Source of the DNA: an uncultured bacterium
GTDB lineage: Bacteria; Patescibacteriota; Minisyncoccia; Moranbacterales; GWC2-37-73
Assembly (NCBI GenBank): GCA_903851135.1
Contig: CAINNK010000023.1
Location: 1 to 53,534, forward strand
DNA: 53,534 bases
Direction of reading: 5' to 3'
Shown in pieces: positions 10,929 to 26,464 of this stretch; within the stretch, counting starts at the first letter, position 1, and each line of letters begins with the position of its first letter. The notes below the pieces were generated by a model. It saw only the letters and a program-made list of their open reading frames with translations. It did no database searches and had not been told where the DNA came from. Position numbers and translations under genes: made by a program.

Positions 10929-11537
10929 CTATTTTAGAAATTCCTTTGCTTGTTTTTTCTTGTAAAGTGTAATAGCGATGAAAGAAATGATGGCGGCTGC
11001 AAAAATAATCCAACCAACCCAACTGATGTATTGCTTGATACTTCGCCAAAGATAACCATAAAAATATCCCATTGCGACCAAAAAGCCGCTCCACACCACT
11101 CCGCCCAACAAAGAATATTGCAGAAATTTTTTGAAATCCATTTTCACAATGCCAGCAGTGACGAAAGTTGCCCAACAAAGTCCCGTGGTTGATTTGACTG
11201 CAAAAATTGTTGTGCCGCCATGCTTTTGAAAATATTTTTCCATTCTCAAAACCAACTTTTCCGTAATGCCCAGATATTTTCCTGGACCGTGCACAAAACC
11301 CATACCCCATTTGCGCCCTGCGCCATAAAGTAGCACATCGCCAAGCATATCACCCAAAATTGAAAACAAAAGCACCACTGGCCAAGCAAAAGCCCCTAGT
11401 GAGGCCAGCATTGCCGCAATGATGGTCACAACTGGCCCCTCCACGATCATCAGCGGCAGCATGGCGAAATAGCCGTAGTGTTTGAGAAATTGAAAAATGA
11501 TTTGTCCTGTTTGCTCCATCCGGTAGTAGAAATTCAA
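10929..11537 (-). CDS. DedA/VTT-domain membrane protein (paralog 1)
   Basis: LKHYGYFAMLPLMIVEGP...ILGDMLGDVLLY..GRKWG is the DedA signature. Multiple TM segments. Confidence 0.8.
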   Translation of the reverse strand: MNFYYRMEQTGQIIFQFLKHYGYFAMLPLMIVEGPVVTIIAAMLASLGAFAWPVVLLFSILGDMLGDVLLYGAGRKWGMGFVHGPGKYLGITEKLVLRMEKYFQKHGGTTIFAVKSTTGLCWATFVTAGIVKMDFKKFLQYSLLGGVVWSGFLVAMGYFYGYLWRSIKQYISWVGWIIFAAAIISFIAITLYKKKQAKEFLK

Positions 11538-11690: not shown

Positions 11691-12281
11691 CTATTTTAAA
11701 AATTCTTCTGATTGCTTTTTCTCATAAAACCCAAGCACGACAAAAATGACAATTGTGACAACCAAAATAACAATCCCGGCCCAACTGACATAGCGCGCGA
11801 TGCTTTTCCAGAGATAACCATAGAAATAGCCCATCGCCACAAAAAAACTGCTCCAAGCAATCGCGCCCAAAAAAGAATAGCGCAAAAATTTTTCAAAATT
11901 CATTTTCACAATCCCAGCTGTGATAAAAGCCAGCAAATAAGGGCCTGTCATTGATTTGACCACAAAAAGAGTTTTGCCACCGTGCCGGTGAAAATATTTT
12001 TCCATTTTCAGCACTCGCCTTTCATTAAGCCCCAGATATTTTCCCCAGCCGGCCGCAAACTGCATGCCCCAACGATAACCCACCCAATACAAAATCACAT
12101 TGCCAATCAAATCTCCCAGAATTGAAAAAAACAAAACCAAGGGCCAGAAGAAAACTCCCAACGAGGCCAAAACCGCCGCCACAATGGTTGCCCCCGCTCC
12201 TTCCACAATCATAAGCGGCAGCATCGCAAAATAGCCGTAGTGTTTGAGAAAATCAAGAGTCAATTGTCCGAGTTGATTCAT
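11691..12281 (-). CDS. DedA/VTT-domain membrane protein (paralog 2, tandem duplicate)
   Basis: Collinear with the neighbouring DedA over its full length, including the identical block LKHYGYFAMLPLMIVEG and MGYFYGYLW. Confidence 0.8.
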   Translation of the reverse strand: MNQLGQLTLDFLKHYGYFAMLPLMIVEGAGATIVAAVLASLGVFFWPLVLFFSILGDLIGNVILYWVGYRWGMQFAAGWGKYLGLNERRVLKMEKYFHRHGGKTLFVVKSMTGPYLLAFITAGIVKMNFEKFLRYSFLGAIAWSSFFVAMGYFYGYLWKSIARYVSWAGIVILVVTIVIFVVLGFYEKKQSEEFLK

Positions 12282-12371: not shown

Positions 12372-12755
12372 CTACTCTTCCATTTGATTTGAATTAGATT
12401 CAAAAAGTTCGGAGATCAAAAATTTTGCTTCTCGATACTCATCCGGTCCCCTTTTCCCCGCCCATTTCAAGAGAAGCTTTTGTTCTGAATTTTTAATCAA
12501 CATAATCCCGGCTTGAAATCTTGGCCTGAGAATATTGTCGACAGAATAAAGATAGTAAAAGGCAACGCATTCGACTATCACTAAAACATACAGAACAAGC
12601 TCGATAAAAAGTGAGGCCATATCCTTAAAAAGCATAGCAAAGATAAACACATGCCAAACCGCATATAAGACATTCATAAGACACCGGCTTTTACGATCTT
12701 TCAAAAAACTTTCGAGCATTGCTCTAAGCTTGGGTGAATAATTCAATTTATTCAT
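12372..12755 (-). CDS. Hypothetical small membrane protein
   Basis: 127 aa from ATG 12755 (AAAGGA SD 7 nt upstream). It has two hydrophobic helices (VWHVFIFAMLF; LVLYVLVIVECVAFYYLY). No recognisable family. Confidence 0.45.
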   Translation of the reverse strand: MNKLNYSPKLRAMLESFLKDRKSRCLMNVLYAVWHVFIFAMLFKDMASLFIELVLYVLVIVECVAFYYLYSVDNILRPRFQAGIMLIKNSEQKLLLKWAGKRGPDEYREAKFLISELFESNSNQMEE

Positions 12756-12947
12756 GAGAATTCCTTTGTTTGATTTTTCAAGAACAAAAAATGACTTTGA
12801 AGTGTACAATGACAACGATAAAATGTCAACAAATGCGCTAAGCATGCCCTCCCCTTGATTTATTTTTTATCTATGATAGACTATCCACTGTTACTGACTT
12901 GAGACAATTTTTGGTCTTTTTATTTTTTCCAAATTCATGTTTTCCAT

Positions 12948-13018
12948 GGCGCTATCGTCTAGTGGTTAGGACACCAGGTTTTTCAGCCAAAGGCTGACCA
13001 CCCCTTGGGTGGCATCCT
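12948..13018 (+). pseudogene. tRNA-Glu 5' fragment carrying a 30-nt insert inside the anticodon, truncated in the anticodon stem
   Basis: 12948-12982 matches the intact tRNA-Glu at 13289-13323. A 30-nt insert follows (12983-13012), then catcct, and homology ends at 13019. Confidence 0.8.
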
Positions 13019-13034
13019 AGCGTTGACTACAATT

Positions 13035-13283
13035 ATGTACTATGTTTATATAATAAAAAGCAAGTTAAAAAAATATTATTATATAGGAAGCACGGAAGAT
13101 TTAAAAAGACGTTTTGAAGAACACAATAGCGGAAAAACCAAATCAATAAAACATCTCATTCCTTTTGAACTTGTTTATTACGAGGCATACAGGGAGAAAG
13201 TTTTAGCTAGAACAAGAGAAATTGATTTAAAGAAGAATAGTTTTAGAAAGAAAGAGTTATTAGATAGAATTGAAAATTTTTAG
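13035..13283 (+). CDS. Small stand-alone GIY-YIG nuclease domain protein
   Basis: 82 aa: MYYVYIIKSKLKKYYYIGSTEDLKRRFEEHNSG...YYEAY....A..RE..LK, the GIY-(x10)-YIG, R and E..N core of the GIY-YIG/URI superfamily. No extra DNA-binding domain. Confidence 0.8.
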   Translation: MYYVYIIKSKLKKYYYIGSTEDLKRRFEEHNSGKTKSIKHLIPFELVYYEAYREKVLARTREIDLKKNSFRKKELLDRIENF

Positions 13284-13288
13284 TATAT

Positions 13289-13363
13289 GGCGCTATCGTC
13301 TAGTGGTTAGGACACCAGGTTTTCATCCTGGTAACAGGAGTCCGATTCTCCTTAGCGCTACCA
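13289..13363 (+). tRNA. tRNA-Glu (anticodon UUC), CCA encoded
   Basis: Hand-folded cloverleaf: acceptor ggcgcta/tagcgct, D arm gtct-agtggtta-ggac, anticodon arm ccagg-ttTTCat-cctgg, T arm aggag-tccgatt-ctcct, discriminator A, then CCA. Confidence 0.9.
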
Positions 13364-13370
13364 AATAAAT

Positions 13371-13460
13371 CTTCGGTTAGAACCCCAGGTTTTTCAGCCA
13401 GAGGCTGACCACCCCCTGGGTGGCATCCTGGTAACAGGAGTCCGATTCTCCTTAGCGCTA
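13371..13460 (+). pseudogene. tRNA-Glu-like copy with degenerate 5' part, 30-nt anticodon insert and intact 3' half
   Basis: cttcggttagaacccc resembles the D arm. It carries the same insert as 12983-13012 with two substitutions. The 3' half (13424-13460) matches the real tRNA exactly. There is no 5' acceptor strand. Confidence 0.75.
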
Positions 13461-13473
13461 CAAATTTTTAAAA

Positions 13474-13494: not shown

Positions 13495-13512
13495 AAATTT
13501 GTCTAGAGATAA

Positions 13513-13616
13513 GAGAGAATCGGACGGGCGCGAGTAGGATGCGAGCAAGTGCGAGCATTCTGTGTGTAGCGCCCCAGCTTCGAGTCAGAGCGAAGAAGCG
13601 ATTCTCCTTAGCGCTA
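13513..13616 (+). other. Hairpin element capped by the tRNA-Glu 3' end (T-arm-antisense arm, ~73-nt GC-rich core, T-arm 3' strand plus acceptor 3' strand)
   Basis: gagagaatcgga (13513-13524) is the reverse complement of the tRNA T-loop/T-stem tccgattctc. The core is 13526-13598. The element ends with cgattctccttagcgcta, identical to the tRNA-Glu 3' end. Confidence 0.7.
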
Positions 13617-13626
13617 CAAACAGAAA

Positions 13627-13657
13627 ATCCCCAGCATTTATTGCTGGGGATTTTTTG
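13627..13657 (+). terminator. Strong rho-independent terminator
   Basis: Stem atccccagca / tgctggggat (10 bp), loop tttat, then tttttt. Confidence 0.8.
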
Positions 13658-13846: not shown

Positions 13847-14389
13847 TTAAACAGACATAGAAAATTCCAAAACATTATCAATACAATTGCCGTTAGACTT
13901 AAACCACTCAATGCTATTATCAAGGCTATGGAATTTTTGACCTGAGATAACTTCATTGCTTGTTATAATCCGATACCCTAGATAAATTGCATGCTCTGCT
14001 GTGCTTTTGACACAATAATCGGCATTAATCCCCATGATTAAAAGATTTTCAACCCCAATTGATTTCAAGTAAGAATTTAATCTAGTTTCTTGAAAGCCAC
14101 TGTTGTAATCTTTTTTAATTACGCGACATTTAGGAGCCTTCAGTGCCGCTCTCAAAAGAATTTTAATAGTGTGTCCATAGTTATAACTTTTTAATTCCAA
14201 AACTACAACTGGGATCTTAGCCCTCACACAATGCTTCAAGACGGCAAGCTGTCTTGCTATTATGCGCTCAGCCTCTCCGTCTCTTAACCTTCCAACAAAC
14301 TTTTCTTGCATGTCGATCAACACAACAGCAAGATTGCCGGAATCTTTAATTGGCTGCTTTTTCACAATACCTCCTTTTTTTAATTTCAA
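13847..14389 (-). CDS. Isochorismatase-family cysteine hydrolase
   Basis: VVLIDMQEKF (catalytic Asp region), a conserved Lys region, and GINADYCVKSTAEHA, which is the DxCV catalytic Cys motif. Confidence 0.8.
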   Translation of the reverse strand: MKLKKGGIVKKQPIKDSGNLAVVLIDMQEKFVGRLRDGEAERIIARQLAVLKHCVRAKIPVVVLELKSYNYGHTIKILLRAALKAPKCRVIKKDYNSGFQETRLNSYLKSIGVENLLIMGINADYCVKSTAEHAIYLGYRIITSNEVISGQKFHSLDNSIEWFKSNGNCIDNVLEFSMSV

Positions 14390-14753
14390 GTTTAGTAAAT
14401 TGCCTCAAGCTCTCAACAAAAGATCAAAGCAATCTACTAAAAGTGAAACCACAATAATTCAAAGAACAACAAAAAAGGATAGCATTTTATTGACTTTTTG
14501 TCAAACGAAAACACAAACAAAAGTACGAAAAATCCCCTAAGAAGGCCTTTAAGTTACATTTAAACTACAAAGGAACCAGACCGATAGGATTGAAAATTGA
14601 GCCAAGATAAGAAAGAAGTTAATAACAAGTTATGAACATATTACAGCTTTTTAGCTGTTATTAATGAAAAATAATGATTTATAATATAAATGAAGACAAG
14701 ACCTTGCTTAATATAGAGAAGCCTATGGAGGACCATCATCTGCTAGAATTTCA

Positions 14754-14794
14754 TTTTCATCTTGGTAACAGGAGTCCGATTCTCCTTAGCGCTA
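14754..14794 (+). pseudogene. tRNA-Glu 3' half fragment (starts in the anticodon loop)
   Basis: ttttcatcttggtaacaggagtccgattctccttagcgcta has one mismatch to the 3' half of the real tRNA. It is followed by a decayed copy of the 13627-13657 terminator. Confidence 0.8.
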
Positions 14795-15025
14795 CAAACA
14801 AGAAATCCCCAGCATTTATTGCTAGAGATTTTTATTTATCTGGCAATAAAAAAACCAGACCAACATAAACTTTCAGAGTACCATCTCTATTGTGGACTAC
14901 GTTTTTACAAAAAATAACGTGATACAATTATTTTTTCTATAAATATTGACATGCAATGCAAAATACCCTATAAAACTAGTAGCTTGCTTCTAACATGAAG
15001 CTTAATTTAACAAGGGAGATTGCTG

Positions 15026-19718: not shown

Positions 19719-22433
19719 ATGAAAGAACTGCCAAAAATATACGAACCGCAAAAAGTTGAAAGCGAAATTTATGCCCGCTGGGAAGCAAGCGGCTTCTTCC
19801 AGCCAGAGGCTGGTCAGCATCTAGCTGATAATCCTGACACGAGAGAGACCTACTGTAATATCCTGCCACCACCGAATGCTAACGGCGAACTTCACATTGG
19901 ACACGCCAGTGGCTACACCGTGATGGATATTTTTGGCCGCTATAATCGCATGAACGGCAAGAAAACCTTGCTCTTGCCTGGCAAAGACCATGCTGGCATT
20001 CAAACTCAAGTAGTTTTTGAAAAAAAATTGCAAACCGAGCTCGGCATAACTAGACAGGAACTTGGCCGCCAGGAATTTTACAAAAAAACCTATGCTTTCT
20101 GCCTGGATCGCGCCAACTATATGCGCAGCCAGGAAAAAAAGATTGGCATCAGTGCCGATTGGTCACGTGAAAAATTCACGCTTGACCCAGATGTGCTCTC
20201 AAGCGCCCTCCAGACCTTTGTAAAAATGCATGAGGACGGTTTGATCTACAAAGGCAAACGCATCATCAATTGGTGCCCACGTTGCGGCACAGCCCTTTCT
20301 GACGTAGAAGTTTTGCACAAAGACACGCCAGGCAAACTATATTTAATCAAATATCCGCTCGAAAATTCAGACTCCACCCAAGGCGGATTAAAAGAATTTA
20401 TTACCGTAGCCACCACCCGTCCTGAAACCATGCTTGGTGACACAGCCATTGCCGTTAGTCCCAAAGACGAGCGCTTTAAAACTTTGGTTGGCAAAAATGC
20501 CATCCTGCCTTTGCAAAACACTATCATCCCAATCATTGCTGACCATCGAATTGACCTTGCTTTTGGAACCGGCGCTGTGAAAATCACACCAGCTCATGAC
20601 CCGCTCGACTGGGAAATTGGCCGAGATCACAACCTTGCAGAAATTCAAATCATTGATGAAAAAGCCTTGATTACTGAGTTTGGTGGAAAATATGCTGGCA
20701 TGACAACTCACGAAGCTCGCGAGGCGGTTGTTAAAGATTTGGAAAAACTTAATCTTTTGGAAAAAATCGAAGACCTGGCTCACAGCGTTTCAATTTGCGA
20801 ACGTTGCAAAACTACCATCGAGCCCCTGACTTCCAAGCAATGGTTCATTGATGTTCAAACCTTGAAACAAAAAGCCATCACGGCAATTGAAAATGGCGAG
20901 ATTGAAATTTTTCCCAACAATTTCAAAAAAATTCTCATTGATTGGTTTGGCAACATGCGCGATTGGTGCATCAGCCGTCAAATCTGGTGGGGACCGCAAT
21001 TCCCAGTTTGGTATCGGCCCAAGGCCGACCAGCCTAGGGCTGGTTGCACGGATGACGATATGGAAATGTATGTAGGGTTAACACCACCAGAGGGCGCTGG
21101 TTGGGTTCAAGATGAAAACACTTTTGACACCTGGTTTACTTCTGGCCAATGGGTGCACACAACTTTGCAAGCTCACGGCGATGATTTCAAAACTTTTTAT
21201 CCAACCGACATGATGATCACCGGCCGCGATTTGCTTTTTTTCTGGGCTTCGAAAATGATCATGATGAGCCTTTATGCTACTGGTAAAGTGCCTTTCAAAA
21301 ATCTTTTTTTCACTGGCTTAGTGCTCGACAAAGAAGGCCACAAATTTTCCAAATCTCGCGGCAACGGCATTGACCCGCTCACGATGATTGATAAATTCGG
21401 CGCCGATGCCCTGCGCATGAGTTTGATTATGGACTCTGCTCCCGGTCAAGACTCACGACTCTATGAAGAAAAAATCGAAACTTTCCGCAATTTCGCCAAC
21501 AAACTTTGGAACATCTCCCGCTATTGTCTGACACAAGAAGGATTTGAATTGGTGGAAGAAATTTCAAATGAAGATTTGAAAACAGAATCAGATAGTTGGA
21601 TAATTCGTAAATTAGATGAAAATATTTTTGAAATTAACAAGCTTTTTGAAAGAAAACAAATCGCTGTCGCTGCTGATATTTTAAAAACTTTCACTTGGAA
21701 TGATTTCGCTGATTGGTATTTAGAAATCAATAAAATCGAAAAAAATCAAAAAGTTCTTGGCTATGTTTTAGACAAACTTCTAAGGCTCTGGCATCCGTTT
21801 ATGCCCTTTATTACTGAACAAATTTGGACATTAGCCCAGCAAGAAAAAATGCTGATGATTTCAAGCTGGCCAAAAACACTTATTTGGAATGAAAATAATG
21901 AAGTAAACCCTAATAAAGAAAACAGTCAATGGAACGAGGTCACTATAAGAGGCTACAATGTTATTGAAAGTAATTTAAAACCAATGATTACCGCATTGAG
22001 AAATATTAGGGCTGAAAATAAAATTGAATCAAATAAAAAAATTAGAATTGTCATCAATGGAAATATAAATGCAGTTCAAGAAATTGAAAAAACTAACCAA
22101 GCAGAAATCATCATGAGTCTCAGAACAGGAGTCGAATTTATTAGCTATAACCAACCAGAAGCTGGATTAAAAAATATGCTTAAAAGAACAGTTGGTACAT
22201 ACACCTTATTAGTTGATCTCACTGGTGCCATCGACACTGAAAAAGAAACCGCTAAAGCTGAGAAAGAAATTGCCAATTTGGAAAATTTCATCGCAGGACT
22301 TTCCGGCAGACTTTCAAACCAAGAATTTGTTTCCAAAGCACCGACGCAAGTCATCAACCAACAAAAAGAAACCCTGACCAAAAAACAAGCCGAACTTGCC
22401 GAGCTCAAAAAGCATTTAGCTAGTCTTACATAA
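19719..22433 (+). CDS. valS: Valine--tRNA ligase
   Basis: PPPNANGELHIGHA (HIGH), KFSKSRGN (KMSKS), a CP1 editing domain and a C-terminal coiled coil. 904 aa. Confidence 0.95.
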   Translation: MKELPKIYEPQKVESEIYARWEASGFFQPEAGQHLADNPDTRETYCNILPPPNANGELHIGHASGYTVMDIFGRYNRMNGKKTLLLPGKDHAGIQTQVVFEKKLQTELGITRQELGRQEFYKKTYAFCLDRANYMRSQEKKIGISADWSREKFTLDPDVLSSALQTFVKMHEDGLIYKGKRIINWCPRCGTALSDVEVLHKDTPGKLYLIKYPLENSDSTQGGLKEFITVATTRPETMLGDTAIAVSPKDERFKTLVGKNAILPLQNTIIPIIADHRIDLAFGTGAVKITPAHDPLDWEIGRDHNLAEIQIIDEKALITEFGGKYAGMTTHEAREAVVKDLEKLNLLEKIEDLAHSVSICERCKTTIEPLTSKQWFIDVQTLKQKAITAIENGEIEIFPNNFKKILIDWFGNMRDWCISRQIWWGPQFPVWYRPKADQPRAGCTDDDMEMYVGLTPPEGAGWVQDENTFDTWFTSGQWVHTTLQAHGDDFKTFYPTDMMITGRDLLFFWASKMIMMSLYATGKVPFKNLFFTGLVLDKEGHKFSKSRGNGIDPLTMIDKFGADALRMSLIMDSAPGQDSRLYEEKIETFRNFANKLWNISRYCLTQEGFELVEEISNEDLKTESDSWIIRKLDENIFEINKLFERKQIAVAADILKTFTWNDFADWYLEINKIEKNQKVLGYVLDKLLRLWHPFMPFITEQIWTLAQQEKMLMISSWPKTLIWNENNEVNPNKENSQWNEVTIRGYNVIESNLKPMITALRNIRAENKIESNKKIRIVINGNINAVQEIEKTNQAEIIMSLRTGVEFISYNQPEAGLKNMLKRTVGTYTLLVDLTGAIDTEKETAKAEKEIANLENFIAGLSGRLSNQEFVSKAPTQVINQQKETLTKKQAELAELKKHLASLT

Positions 22434-25649: not shown

Positions 25650-25722
25650 GCGCTGTTAGCTCAGTTGGTAGAGCAGATCCCTCTTAAGGATATGGTCGGG
25701 GGTTCAAATCCCTCACAGCGCA
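25650..25722 (+). tRNA. tRNA-Lys (anticodon CUU)
   Basis: Acceptor gcgctgt/acagcgc, D loop agctcagttggtagagc, anticodon loop ctCTTaa, T arm ggggg-ttcaaat-ccctc, discriminator A. Confidence 0.9.
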
Positions 25723-25770
25723 CAATTTTCAAAAAGTTTTTGACTTTTTGAAAAATAAAAAAAGTTAAAA

Positions 25771-25867
25771 GGGATTTGAAGGGCGCGAGTAAAATGCGAG
25801 TGTGCGAGCATTTTGTGCGCAGCGCCCAGGCTCCGAGTCGGAGCGAGGAGAAATCCCTCACAGCGCA
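25771..25867 (+). other. Hairpin element capped by the tRNA-Lys 3' end (homologous core to 13526-13598)
   Basis: gggatttgaa (reverse complement of T-loop ttcaaatccc), a 70-nt core (25781-25850), then aaatccctcacagcgca, which equals the tRNA-Lys 3' end. The 54 bp from aaatccc onward exactly repeat 25706-25759. Confidence 0.7.
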
Positions 25868-25913
25868 CAATTTTCAAAAAGTTTTTGACTTTTTGAAAAA
25901 TAAACACAGCTAC

Positions 25914-25985
25914 GCCCCCATAGCTCAACGGATAGAGCAATAGCCTTCTAAGCTGAAGATCTAGGTTCGATTCCTGGTGGGGGTA
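25914..25985 (+). tRNA. tRNA-Arg (anticodon UCU)
   Basis: Acceptor gccccca/tgggggt, anticodon loop ctTCTaa, T arm ctagg-ttcgatt-cctgg, discriminator A. Confidence 0.85.
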
Positions 25986-26004
25986 CAAAATGGAAGTTTG
26001 AACA

Positions 26005-26120
26005 CCCAGCAGGAATCGAACAGAAAAGGGGTCGGGAAAAACTAGGTTTTCCCGCGGCGGAAGTCTTGAAACCGATGGGCTTCAAAGAGCGAAGCGAGTG
26101 AGATTTTCCTGGTGGGGGTA
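26005..26120 (+). other. Hairpin element capped by the tRNA-Arg(UCU) 3' end
   Basis: cccagcaggaatcgaa (26005-26020) is the reverse complement of tRNA T-arm/acceptor ttcgattcctggtggg with 1 mismatch. A structured GC-rich core follows, and the element ends ttcctggtgggggta, the tRNA 3' end. Confidence 0.6.
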
Positions 26121-26125
26121 CGGAG

Positions 26126-26216
26126 ATAATTTAAAATTTAAAAATCAAAATTTAAAATGTTAGTGTTCACTTCGTTCACGAATTTTTTAATTTTTAATTT
26201 TGAGATTTGCATTTTC
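26126..26216. repeat. MITE-like AT-rich element with heptamer-periodic inverted arms (copy 1)
   Basis: Arms are taatttaaaatttaaaaatcaaaatttaaaatg and ttttaatttttaattttgagatttgcatttt. Both arms recur in inverted orientation at 36617-36737, including a 32-nt exact match. Confidence 0.75.
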
Positions 26217-26228
26217 CATTTTTAACAT

Positions 26229-26301
26229 GGCGGGTATCGTCTATCGGTTAAGACATCGGTTTGTGGTACCGAGAAGTTGGGTTCGACTCCCAGTACTCGC
26301 C
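26229..26301 (+). tRNA. tRNA-His (anticodon GUG) with encoded G-1
   Basis: G-1 is opposite discriminator C73. Acceptor gcgggta/tactcgc, anticodon loop ttGTGgt, T arm ttggg-ttcgact-cccag. Confidence 0.85.
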
Positions 26302-26330
26302 CCGTTTGGTTTTCAAAAATTTCGAAAATT

Positions 26331-26403
26331 GCGTTCGTAGCTCAAAGGATAGAGCACTTGACTTCGGATCAAGGGGTTGCAGGTTCGAGTCCTGCCGAGC
26401 GCA
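26331..26403 (+). tRNA. tRNA-Arg (anticodon UCG)
   Basis: Acceptor gcgttcg/cgagcgc, anticodon arm cttga-ctTCGga-tcaag, T arm gcagg-ttcgagt-cctgc, discriminator A. Confidence 0.85.
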
Positions 26404-26464
26404 CAAAGAAAAAACTCCGATTTTCGTCGGGATTTTTTGTTGCCACATTAAATCAATTTTTTGA

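Follow-up and report, generated by a model that had tools for sequence, protein, structure and literature searches.

In a 53,534-nt stretch of DNA from an uncultured bacterium (contig CAINNK010000023.1, the whole of which is referred to below as the window), the native gene for tRNA-Glu(UUC) is split by a 441-nt insertion (12983-13423) that lies inside the anticodon, between U35 (T35 in the DNA) and C36. From left to right, the insertion consists of a 30-nt double hairpin (DH), a 6-nt tRNA flank, an open reading frame (ORF) for an 82-aa GIY-YIG nuclease, a complete tRNA-Glu gene, a short tRNA flank, and a second DH. The same cassette design is common to hundreds of genomes of the Candidate Phyla Radiation (CPR) and the Bacteroidota, where it stands beside tRNA genes, and the DH is a structured sequence that is also dispersed at many other sites with a preference for particular target bases. 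It appears rather probable that the nuclease, which resembles the Ssn nucleases specific for single-stranded DNA (ssDNA), and the DH constitute a selfish element housed in a split tRNA gene for which it carries a replacement copy.

The split tRNA-Glu locus and its empty counterpart

The features of the locus are given below, where A and D designate the two outer tRNA segments, C the inner tRNA gene, and L numbers the loci and contigs compared with the window.

12855..12882 (+): promoter-like block of the native tRNA-Glu gene (TTGATT-16 nt-TAGACT), ~65 nt 5' of A; aligns with the promoter regions of L097, L098 and L001
12948..12982 (+): A, native tRNA-Glu positions 1-35 (5' strand of the acceptor stem, D arm, and 5' strand of the anticodon stem to U35); identical to C
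12983..13012 (+): DH-1, TCAGCCaaaGGCTGA followed by CCACCCcttGGGTGG, forming the left boundary of the 441-nt insertion; 44.6 bits with covariance model R1, E 2e-10
13013..13018 (+): inner flank CATCCT after DH-1, tRNA positions 36-41; tRNA similarity stops at 13018
13035..13283 (+): gene for the 82-aa single-domain GIY-YIG nuclease (Pfam PF01541, E 6.5e-16); ATG 16 nt after the break
13289..13363 (+): C, intact tRNA-Glu(UUC) within the insertion (ARAGORN; Rfam tRNA, 62.3 bits); 5 nt after the ORF stop
13364..13393 (+): spacer and, to its right, a decayed tRNA 5' part that forms a short left flank; 13375-13393 is like tRNA positions 17-35 except at 2 bases
13394..13423 (+): DH-2, right end of the 441-nt insertion; R1, 45.5 bits, E 1.2e-10
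13424..13461 (+): D, native tRNA-Glu positions 36-73, 38 nt matching the 3' half of C at every base; beyond it, the native terminator and what lies downstream align with L097
13467..13497 (+): intrinsic-terminator-like hairpin of the native tRNA-Glu gene (terminator scan); aligns with the terminators of L097 and L098

Four of these elements (A, the nuclease ORF, C, and D) had been proposed in an earlier reading made from the letters alone (the sequence-only reading). All four were recovered in place by ARAGORN, Rfam, Pfam and repeat comparison, ARAGORN calling the intact tRNA-Glu(UUC) at 13289-13363. The ORF does begin soon after the break in the first tRNA segment, as that reading had it, but the distance to the ATG is 16 nt rather than 17. 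A and C are identical over 35 nt, or 37 nt when two upstream bases are included, and DH-2 differs from DH-1 at two bases, both in loops. DH-1 lies 22 nt 5' of the ORF start, and DH-2 lies 110 nt 3' of its stop. No ORF other than the GIY-YIG gene is present for the 441-nt cassette in the ORF listing. The hexamers of the promoter-like block, read by eye, score 8/12 and are therefore not listed by a promoter scan with a cut-off of 9/12; a promoter function of the block is suggested by its sequence.

Confidence in this anatomy is high. The locus recurs without a single difference in L090 (ERZ27313161) and L091 (ERZ18626419), contigs assembled independently from other samples (L090-L099 derive from groundwater sites); these two are the only ones to span it, two shorter contigs of the same organism (L092 and L093) ending inside the tRNA repeats. 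This identity, together with the same layout in dozens of other genomes, indicates that the arrangement is due neither to chance nor to an assembly artefact. The nearest relatives of the encoded proteins carry the labels Moranbacteria, Parcubacteria or Patescibacteria, which places the window in a CPR bacterium.

Relatives with the same neighbourhood were located through the adjacent sigma-70 gene. The sigma-70, TsaD and VTT genes are common to L097 and L098 (and its sister contig L099), and L098 shares the valyl-tRNA synthetase (ValRS) gene as well. Between sigma-70 and VTT, L097 and L098 have a promoter-like block, a leader, a plain tRNA-Glu gene and a terminator, with no GIY-YIG gene and no DH beside the tRNA gene. 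When positions 12983-13423 are removed from the window, the tRNA gene that results is identical to that of L097 (73/73), and the flanks of the locus are 80% identical to those of L097 over 283 nt spanning the promoter, the terminator and an inverted tRNA fragment. Since the deletion rebuilds a precise tRNA, A is the 5' half and D the 3' half of a single native gene; they are not two separate broken copies, as the sequence-only reading had taken them to be. It follows that the intact tRNA-Glu, C, belongs to the inserted segment. C is identical in sequence to the tRNA-Glu of L097 and L098, and is probably the working copy. The site is thus empty in L097 and L098 and occupied in the window, L001 and L009, which bears out the earlier proposal that a nuclease cassette entered a tRNA-Glu gene with retention of an intact copy.

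In two other loci, L031 and L034, the acceptor strand of A (GGCCCGT) pairs with that of D (ACGGGTC or ACGGGCT), and the intact inner tRNA has an acceptor stem (GCCGCCA/TGGCGGT) that is unpaired with the outer copies. Near the insertion, A carries the lineage-specific variants of the inner copy (positions 8-35), and D carries them from position 36 to ~48 in L034 and to ~65 in L031; they are absent farther out. A gradient of this kind is what copying of a donor cassette into the resident gene would leave, with co-conversion weakening as distance grows; by implication, the tRNA-Glu now used in these hosts is imported and of a foreign type.

From promoter to terminator, the tRNA-Glu locus is inverted relative to sigma-70 and VTT in the window and L009, as compared with L097, L098 and L001. 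Nearby inverted tRNA fragments may have mediated this flip.

The nuclease family, the double hairpin and neighbouring features

By its sequence, the window protein is a member of the GIY-YIG superfamily, matching PF01541 over residues 1-70 with 58.8 bits against a cut-off of 22.6. Its 82 aa comprise the GIY-YIG domain alone, without a DNA-binding domain by Pfam or by homologue alignment. The 456 homologues listed are mostly 80-90 aa long and have no further Pfam domain except an overlapping T5orf172 match. Across 49 homologues there is no variation at Y5, Y16, G18 and H30 and hardly any at R26 and E62; with N68, which is present in the window protein, the set of catalytic residues (two Tyr, Arg, His, Glu and Asn) is complete. 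The catalytic assignment was made by alignment to UPF0213 and I-TevI together with the known residues of I-TevI. A profile search of the PDB returned the UPF0213 protein BH0048 (E 1.9e-12).

A profile built from the 49 homologues was used to search one-genome-per-species contigs, and at least 575 relatives were confirmed in species genomes. The layout counts that follow cover the 80 loci fetched, all from species genomes with a homologue. In 54 of the 80, the start of a tRNA gene on the same strand is no more than 60 nt after the ORF stop (the chance expectation is ~0.0014 per ORF), and a tRNA lies within 100 nt upstream of the ORF in 8 further loci. The great majority of homologues are thus tied to a tRNA gene; a lack of such linkage, which would have refuted the sequence-only reading, is not what is seen. 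The adjacent tRNA is mostly Glu(UUC), and more distant members of the nuclease family are located at Glu(CUC), Ser(GGA), Ala, Val and Asp.

The 5' side of the ORF usually holds a partial tRNA copy that runs from position 1 to a break x and is followed by a DH and then 4-12 tRNA bases (in the 5'-type loci where this inner flank was detected). In the genome loci the partial copy is always of the same tRNA type as the adjacent tRNA (Glu, Asp or Ser). The break is at 35 (anticodon) in most loci, at ~21-25 (D arm) in some, and at ~11-13 in others. In most of the loci, no more than ~45 nt separate the DH from the ORF. Copies of the D type follow the intact tRNA in at least 10 other loci, with a left flank of only 8-17 nt, and a fine structure like that of the window recurs in >60 genomes. 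On metagenome contigs, DH-ORF pairs also occur beside Pro, Tyr and Ala tRNA genes, as judged by position and D-loop flanks only.

The Cytophagales (Bacteroidota) exhibit the mirror layout, in which an intact tRNA-Glu and a terminator are followed by 1-5 tandem units. Each unit consists of the ORF, GGGTTC, a DH, the tRNA 3' end and a terminator, the DH being in the T loop (x = 55). Tandem arrays of 3-5 units are found; for example, the complete genome of Marivirga tractuosa strain ac6 has five (the type strain of the species is DSM 4126). The nuclease identity between CPR and Bacteroidota members is 55-65%, and a spread over both groups at this level of identity points to horizontal transfer.

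Some loci depart from these layouts. In L068, L069, L074 and L082 (about 2460-2500), a distant branch of the nuclease is upstream of tRNA-Ala and tRNA-Val, and only an 11-nt tRNA 5' fragment is present, followed by CCCCTCAC; the canonical DH is absent. Ahead of the tRNA fragment, L069 and L074 have a GTGAGG that pairs with CCCCTCAC and so encloses the fragment in a hairpin. Some partial tRNA-Glu copies (L022, L026, L035 and L055) hold a second, different hairpin in the D arm besides the DH in the anticodon loop.

The DH is made up of two abutting 6-bp hairpins with loops of 3-4 nt (consensus TCAGCCnnAGGCTGA and CCAGCCTCTGGCTGG; whole, TCAGCCnnAGGCTGACCAGCCTCTGGCTGG). T1, C2, G14 and A15 are invariant, and changes on both sides are seen at 9 of the 12 stem pairs. 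Because the DH sequences were picked for pairing, it is this variation that is informative, and not the 100% pairing. Rfam, at gathering and permissive thresholds, gave tRNA matches only, and the DH is thus no described RNA family. Covariance model R1 finds four copies in the window (E 1e-10 to 5e-9), all of which fold as two hairpins in single-stranded-DNA folding. Two are at the tRNA locus, and the other two are solo copies in the ValRS gene (19719-22433):

19799..19828 (-): solo DH in ValRS, encoding QPEAGQHLAD, with the second hairpin partly decayed; R1, 39.5 bits, E 4.7e-9
21014..21043 (+): solo DH in ValRS, in frame, encoding RPKADQPRAG; R1, 39.7 bits, E 4.1e-9

At 19799-19828, the protein alignment gives the window ValRS extra residues after SGFF relative to the ValRS of L009, and on our own re-reading of that alignment they appear as a clean in-frame insertion of 10 aa (30 nt). 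An intact DH is present at this position in L001, L098, L124 and L217. The DH at 21014-21043 replaces a CxxC...CxxC zinc knuckle that is retained in L009 and L124; this insertion is found in L217 as well, and L205 has an independent ValRS DH beside WYC.

At least 120 metagenome contigs match one exact DH variant (loci L103-L222). Among the matches listed, 19 of the 123 DH copies are within 500 nt of a family nuclease gene, and all of these except the one in L184 have a tRNA gene within ~600 nt. The remainder are mostly solo (for example, L196:6061-6090, L154:844-873, and L172:2211-2240). All nine solo-DH ORFs that were checked are core genes with in-frame read-through, namely those for an Ile-type synthetase, ArgRS, a RecG-like helicase, UvrC, RpoC, topoisomerase I (TopA), SMC, LigA, and a Clp ATPase. 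The peptides encoded by the DH recur, SQPKADQPLAG being an example. The matches listed also include 25 twin copies, in which one DH is located at TC^CGC of another, the pair having spread as a unit of ~70 nt.

At 187 distinct DH sites, position -2 is T in 83%, position -1 is T or C in 81%, T is infrequent at position +1, and 92% have a purine at position +2. The target may therefore be written T-Y^V-R; there is no target duplication, and the DH is present in either orientation. The sequence-only reading had recorded the same 30-nt insert in both outer tRNA segments, and the insert is indeed there twice. It is no incidental feature: the DH is structured, is found in protein-coding genes, and looks mobile by itself.

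The remaining features concern the surroundings of the locus. The window has further tRNA-Glu 3' fragments at about 13497-13520 (-), 13583-13617, and 14749-14798. The first, after the terminator, is a decayed and inverted T arm with 3' end, and it is followed, within 13495-13600, by a G+C-rich piece with three GCGAG repeats. Since the inverted fragment and the G+C-rich piece are common to L097 (9137-9180), they are older than the cassette. In the fragment at 13583-13617, the T arm is interrupted by 13 nt, and the copy at 14749 reaches back to the anticodon loop. Two direct repeats (13599-13655 and 14777-14833), each consisting of the tRNA-Glu 3' end and a second type of terminator, are 93% identical over 57 nt. 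Between them is an isochorismatase-family gene (13847-14389, -) that is absent from L097, and the segment looks like a separate small island at a tRNA 3' end.

Near the tRNA locus are two adjacent paralogous ORFs (10929-11537 and 11691-12281), of which the second matches Pfam VTT and the first is similar to it by eye. Between this pair and the tRNA promoter is a 157-aa ORF (12372-12845) with no family match, which is absent from L009 and L097. A tRNA cluster at 25650-26404 (Lys-CUU, Arg-UCU, His-GUG and Arg-UCG) has no DH, nuclease gene or partial copies, and the element is therefore specific to tRNA-Glu within this stretch of the genome.

Interpretation and competing explanations

In the reading held to be rather probable, the 82-aa protein would recognise the DH and a few flanking bases as ssDNA, as the analogy with Ssn suggests, and the two would form one selfish system. 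Recognition of this kind would explain why a short inner tRNA flank is always kept at each DH. Confidence in the enzymology, including the action of the nuclease on the DH, is moderate to low. A DH in a tRNA gene would be viable only if the cassette supplied the displaced part or a whole copy. It is proposed that, as the DH would otherwise be lethal in such a gene, the nuclease gene occurs only in cassettes with part of a tRNA or a whole one, where it would ride between the DH-disrupted remnant and the intact tRNA.

Since tRNA sequences are conserved across species, the tRNA halves of the cassette could serve as homology arms, and gene conversion or homologous recombination would bring the cassette into a naive tRNA-Glu gene. 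Subsequent recombination of its direct repeats would give precise deletion or tandem amplification. Between the 3' halves of C and D it would yield the D-less form seen in L009 and L001, and between the 5' halves of A and C it would result in precise loss or in tandem arrays (L016, L089 and L043). The native promoter would now read through the dead 5' half, DH-1 and the nuclease ORF. Because the promoter is upstream of the whole cassette and the tRNA begins 5 nt after the ORF stop, expression of tRNA-Glu is probably tied to transcription of the element. Were it the sole promoter, the supply of tRNA-Glu would be tied to the retention of the element.

A more far-reaching proposal, which is doubtful but worth stating, is that the system represents a class of minimal ssDNA transposable elements. 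The nuclease would read the DH and T-Y^V-R and drive cut-or-copy insertion of the DH, without duplication, into exposed loops such as those of tRNA-gene cloverleaves at replication forks or transcription bubbles, and of coding sequences. The nuclease gene would survive only by hitching to a replacement tRNA piece, and the 10-residue DH peptides (such as QPKADQPLAG) would remodel essential CPR proteins.

Several observations weigh against the selfish-element reading as a whole. Solo DHs persist without a nearby nuclease gene, as in L098, which leaves co-location as the only link between DH and nuclease. The mismatches in the DH stems (G.T, 10; A.C, 5) do not establish the functional strand. By ARAGORN, 16 of the 80 loci have no nearby tRNA. 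Among solved structures, the UPF0213 proteins 1zg2 and 1ywl are the nearest, and the DH does not resemble the NTS repeats of Neisseria in sequence. As to a vehicle for the spread across phyla, viral contigs gave one distant match (37% identity), the nuclease family being essentially absent from them, and a tblastn search of plasmids gave no match to the nuclease. The identity of two independent assemblies of the same organism means that there is no sign of current activity. Finally, the reading does not account for how a tRNA-carrying cassette first arose.

A classical free-standing homing endonuclease of the SegB/MobA type would cut double-stranded, DH-free tRNA-Glu DNA near the anticodon; break repair would copy the cassette, and the DH would be an immunity insertion. 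This is considered unlikely, even though it accords with an insertion point that is constant within a conserved gene, with the occurrence of both empty and occupied alleles among relatives, and with the co-conversion-like tracts of L031 and L034. It also has precedents in SegB (PMC2330249), which is found in the tRNA cluster of T4, and in the bypass cassette of mobA (bioRxiv 10.1101/2022.08.31.505936), and the DH may be compared to the 50-nt gene 60 insert that is paired with mobA in phage T4. However, the window protein has the catalytic domain only, without a DNA-binding domain for a long double-stranded target, and the characterised single-domain relatives do not cut double-stranded DNA (PMC11893778). 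Moreover, the carrier allele is not immune, as an unaltered tRNA-Glu identical to the empty allele is kept in the cassette, and the DH has spread alone to many unrelated sites, protein-coding genes included, which an immunity insertion would not need to do. Domestication to a host function is somewhat less likely still. In this case, as proposed for SsnA and the NTS in Neisseria, the system would regulate the uptake or recombination of ssDNA, and the location at tRNA genes would reflect strong promoters or an old history of insertion. SsnA does modulate natural transformation, its repeats surrounding particular genes (PMC11893778), and the strong conservation of the ORF, with catalytic residues intact across two phyla, and the identity of both assemblies that span the locus are in keeping with a host role. 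Presence or absence among close relatives, tandem amplification, a foreign-type replacement tRNA between native halves, and the partial copy of whichever tRNA adjoins in each nuclease lineage speak against this, being marks of a selfish element and not of a housekeeping gene.

It is very improbable that the feature acts at the RNA level, either with the 30-nt insert as a tRNA intron or processing signal, or with the fragment and hairpins as a regulatory 5' leader of the nuclease mRNA. The CPR form does place the fragment and the DH between promoter and ORF, the hairpins covary, and the insertions are in or beside the D, anticodon and T loops, like some archaeal introns. Against this, the DH is 3' of the ORF in the Bacteroidota, no Rfam match was obtained (intron families included), and there is no group I core or bulge-helix-bulge motif, 30 nt being too short for a group I core. 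A tRNA intron or split tRNA was rejected because the DH-bearing tRNA copies are truncated and cannot become tRNAs, and because the DH occurs in both orientations and is read through by ORFs in coding sequence. Next to no weight is given to the remaining alternative, that the locus is a remnant of integrase islands with a tRNA attachment site or an artefact of assembling a repeated tRNA. The direct repeats that flank the isochorismatase gene would suit it, and some contigs break within these repeats; but no integrase is found in or beside the cassette, integrases do not leave a duplication of the 5' half, independent assemblies are identical, and the same fine structure is seen in >60 genomes. 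The island reading may hold for the downstream tRNA 3' fragments, though not for the cassette.

If the nuclease and DH do form a selfish element, some wider consequences may be seen. GIY-YIG proteins of a single domain exist in abundance, and of these the Ssn clade alone has been characterised, in 2025 (PMC11893778). The present loci would provide such proteins with a natural setting, as part of a mobile element, with the DH and its tRNA flanks as candidate substrates. A host may end up with a foreign-type tRNA-Glu, as in L031 and L034, and the in-frame DHs in RpoC, topoisomerase I, ligase, several aminoacyl-tRNA synthetases and further core proteins of CPR would be a source of protein-length variation and genome rearrangement. 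The DH is also a likely reason for breaks in assemblies and for wrong annotation of tRNA fragments. Carriage by Marivirga tractuosa should open these questions to experiment.

Comparison with known systems

The closest described system is the Ssn family (CDD cd10448), to which the window protein is likened by domain size and repeat layout and not as a proven member. Ssn proteins are single-domain, site-specific GIY-YIG nucleases of ssDNA with cognate hairpin repeats, NTS/SRM (Chenal et al. 2025, PMC11893778). They bind the hairpin in ssDNA and cut just upstream of it, and are inactive on duplex DNA and RNA; SsnA has 94 aa, and the layout of repeat, gene and repeat was noted by its authors to resemble an insertion sequence (PMC11893778). 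As in Ssn, the window protein is a bare GIY-YIG domain of <100 aa, and its gene has next to it, on one side or on both, a G+C-rich hairpin repeat (20-50 nt) that recurs in the genome. In contrast to the NTS/SRM consensus, CGTCATTCCCGCG...GCGGGAATC, the 30-nt DH (TCAGCCnnAGGCTGACCAGCCTCTGGCTGG) consists of two 6-bp hairpins and has no ATTCCC/GGGAAT core. NTS copies are rarely found inside genes (2%; PMC11893778), whereas the DH is mostly inside genes. The nesting of the nuclease gene in a split tRNA gene with a replacement copy, and the CPR and Bacteroidota hosts, also set the present system apart; the Ssn paper (PMC11893778) makes no mention of tRNA, double hairpins, CPR or Bacteroidota. A search of the full-text literature found no description of a GIY-YIG mini-gene nested in a split tRNA gene with a replacement copy, nor of this DH in bacterial genes. 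One paper reports the horizontal transfer of a GIY-YIG gene out of Patescibacteria, with no such architecture.

SegB of phage T4, which the sequence-only reading had offered as an analogue, is probably not the right one. SegB is a multi-domain enzyme that cuts double-stranded DNA, the window protein is a bare 82-aa domain, and Ssn is closer. The T4 SegB and mobA systems are similar in that a GIY-YIG or HNH gene is located beside or within essential genes, that spread takes place by gene conversion with co-conversion of flanking markers, and that, for mobA, a short insert travels with the nuclease gene. The T4 enzymes differ in having DNA-binding domains and cleaving double-stranded DNA, and the T4 cassettes differ in being phage-borne and without a duplicated part of the target gene.

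The DH itself is reminiscent of the double-hairpin elements (DHEs) of fungal mitochondria. DHEs were reportedly found by Paquin, Laforest and Lang in 2000 to have compensatory changes in the stems, more variable loops, insertions in protein-coding genes, and nested twins. In two further accounts, DHEs are short and G+C-rich with two stem-loops and no flanking duplication (PMC2800124), and occur within intergenic regions as well as rRNA genes (PMC10085805). The bacterial DH is like them in kind, being G+C-rich with two stem-loops, compensatory changes and no duplication, and being found in genes and nested, with no homology implied. DHEs are mitochondrial and have no assigned enzyme, whereas the DH belongs to bacteria and is associated with a GIY-YIG gene and with tRNA loops.

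Hairpin ends, the lack of target duplication, and a short target motif are shared with repetitive extragenic palindromes and their associated tyrosine transposases (REP/RAYT; REPtrons), with the palindromic elements derived from IS200/IS605, and with the Rickettsia palindromic elements. Like REP/RAYT, the system has a single-copy enzyme gene flanked by its repeats. Unlike IS200/IS605 and REP/RAYT, the associated gene encodes a GIY-YIG protein and not an HUH Y1 transposase with covalent intermediates; a GIY-YIG hydrolase is not known to carry out strand transfer alone. In-frame insertion into protein-coding genes is also a property of the Rickettsia palindromic elements, relative to which the DH, at 30 nt, is far smaller.

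For the supply of a replacement, there is a parallel in atp6 of Allomyces macrogynus, an essential gene where a mobile endonuclease ORF, once inserted, reportedly brings a foreign substitute for the displaced part and the resident part is left as a remnant (Paquin et al. 1994). The Allomyces target is protein-coding and mitochondrial; here it is a tRNA gene, for which either a part or a whole tRNA is supplied. The same device recalls the integrative islands that restore their tRNA target. Bringing a spare copy or the displaced part would give a selfish element an alternative to splicing as a means of occupying an essential RNA gene.

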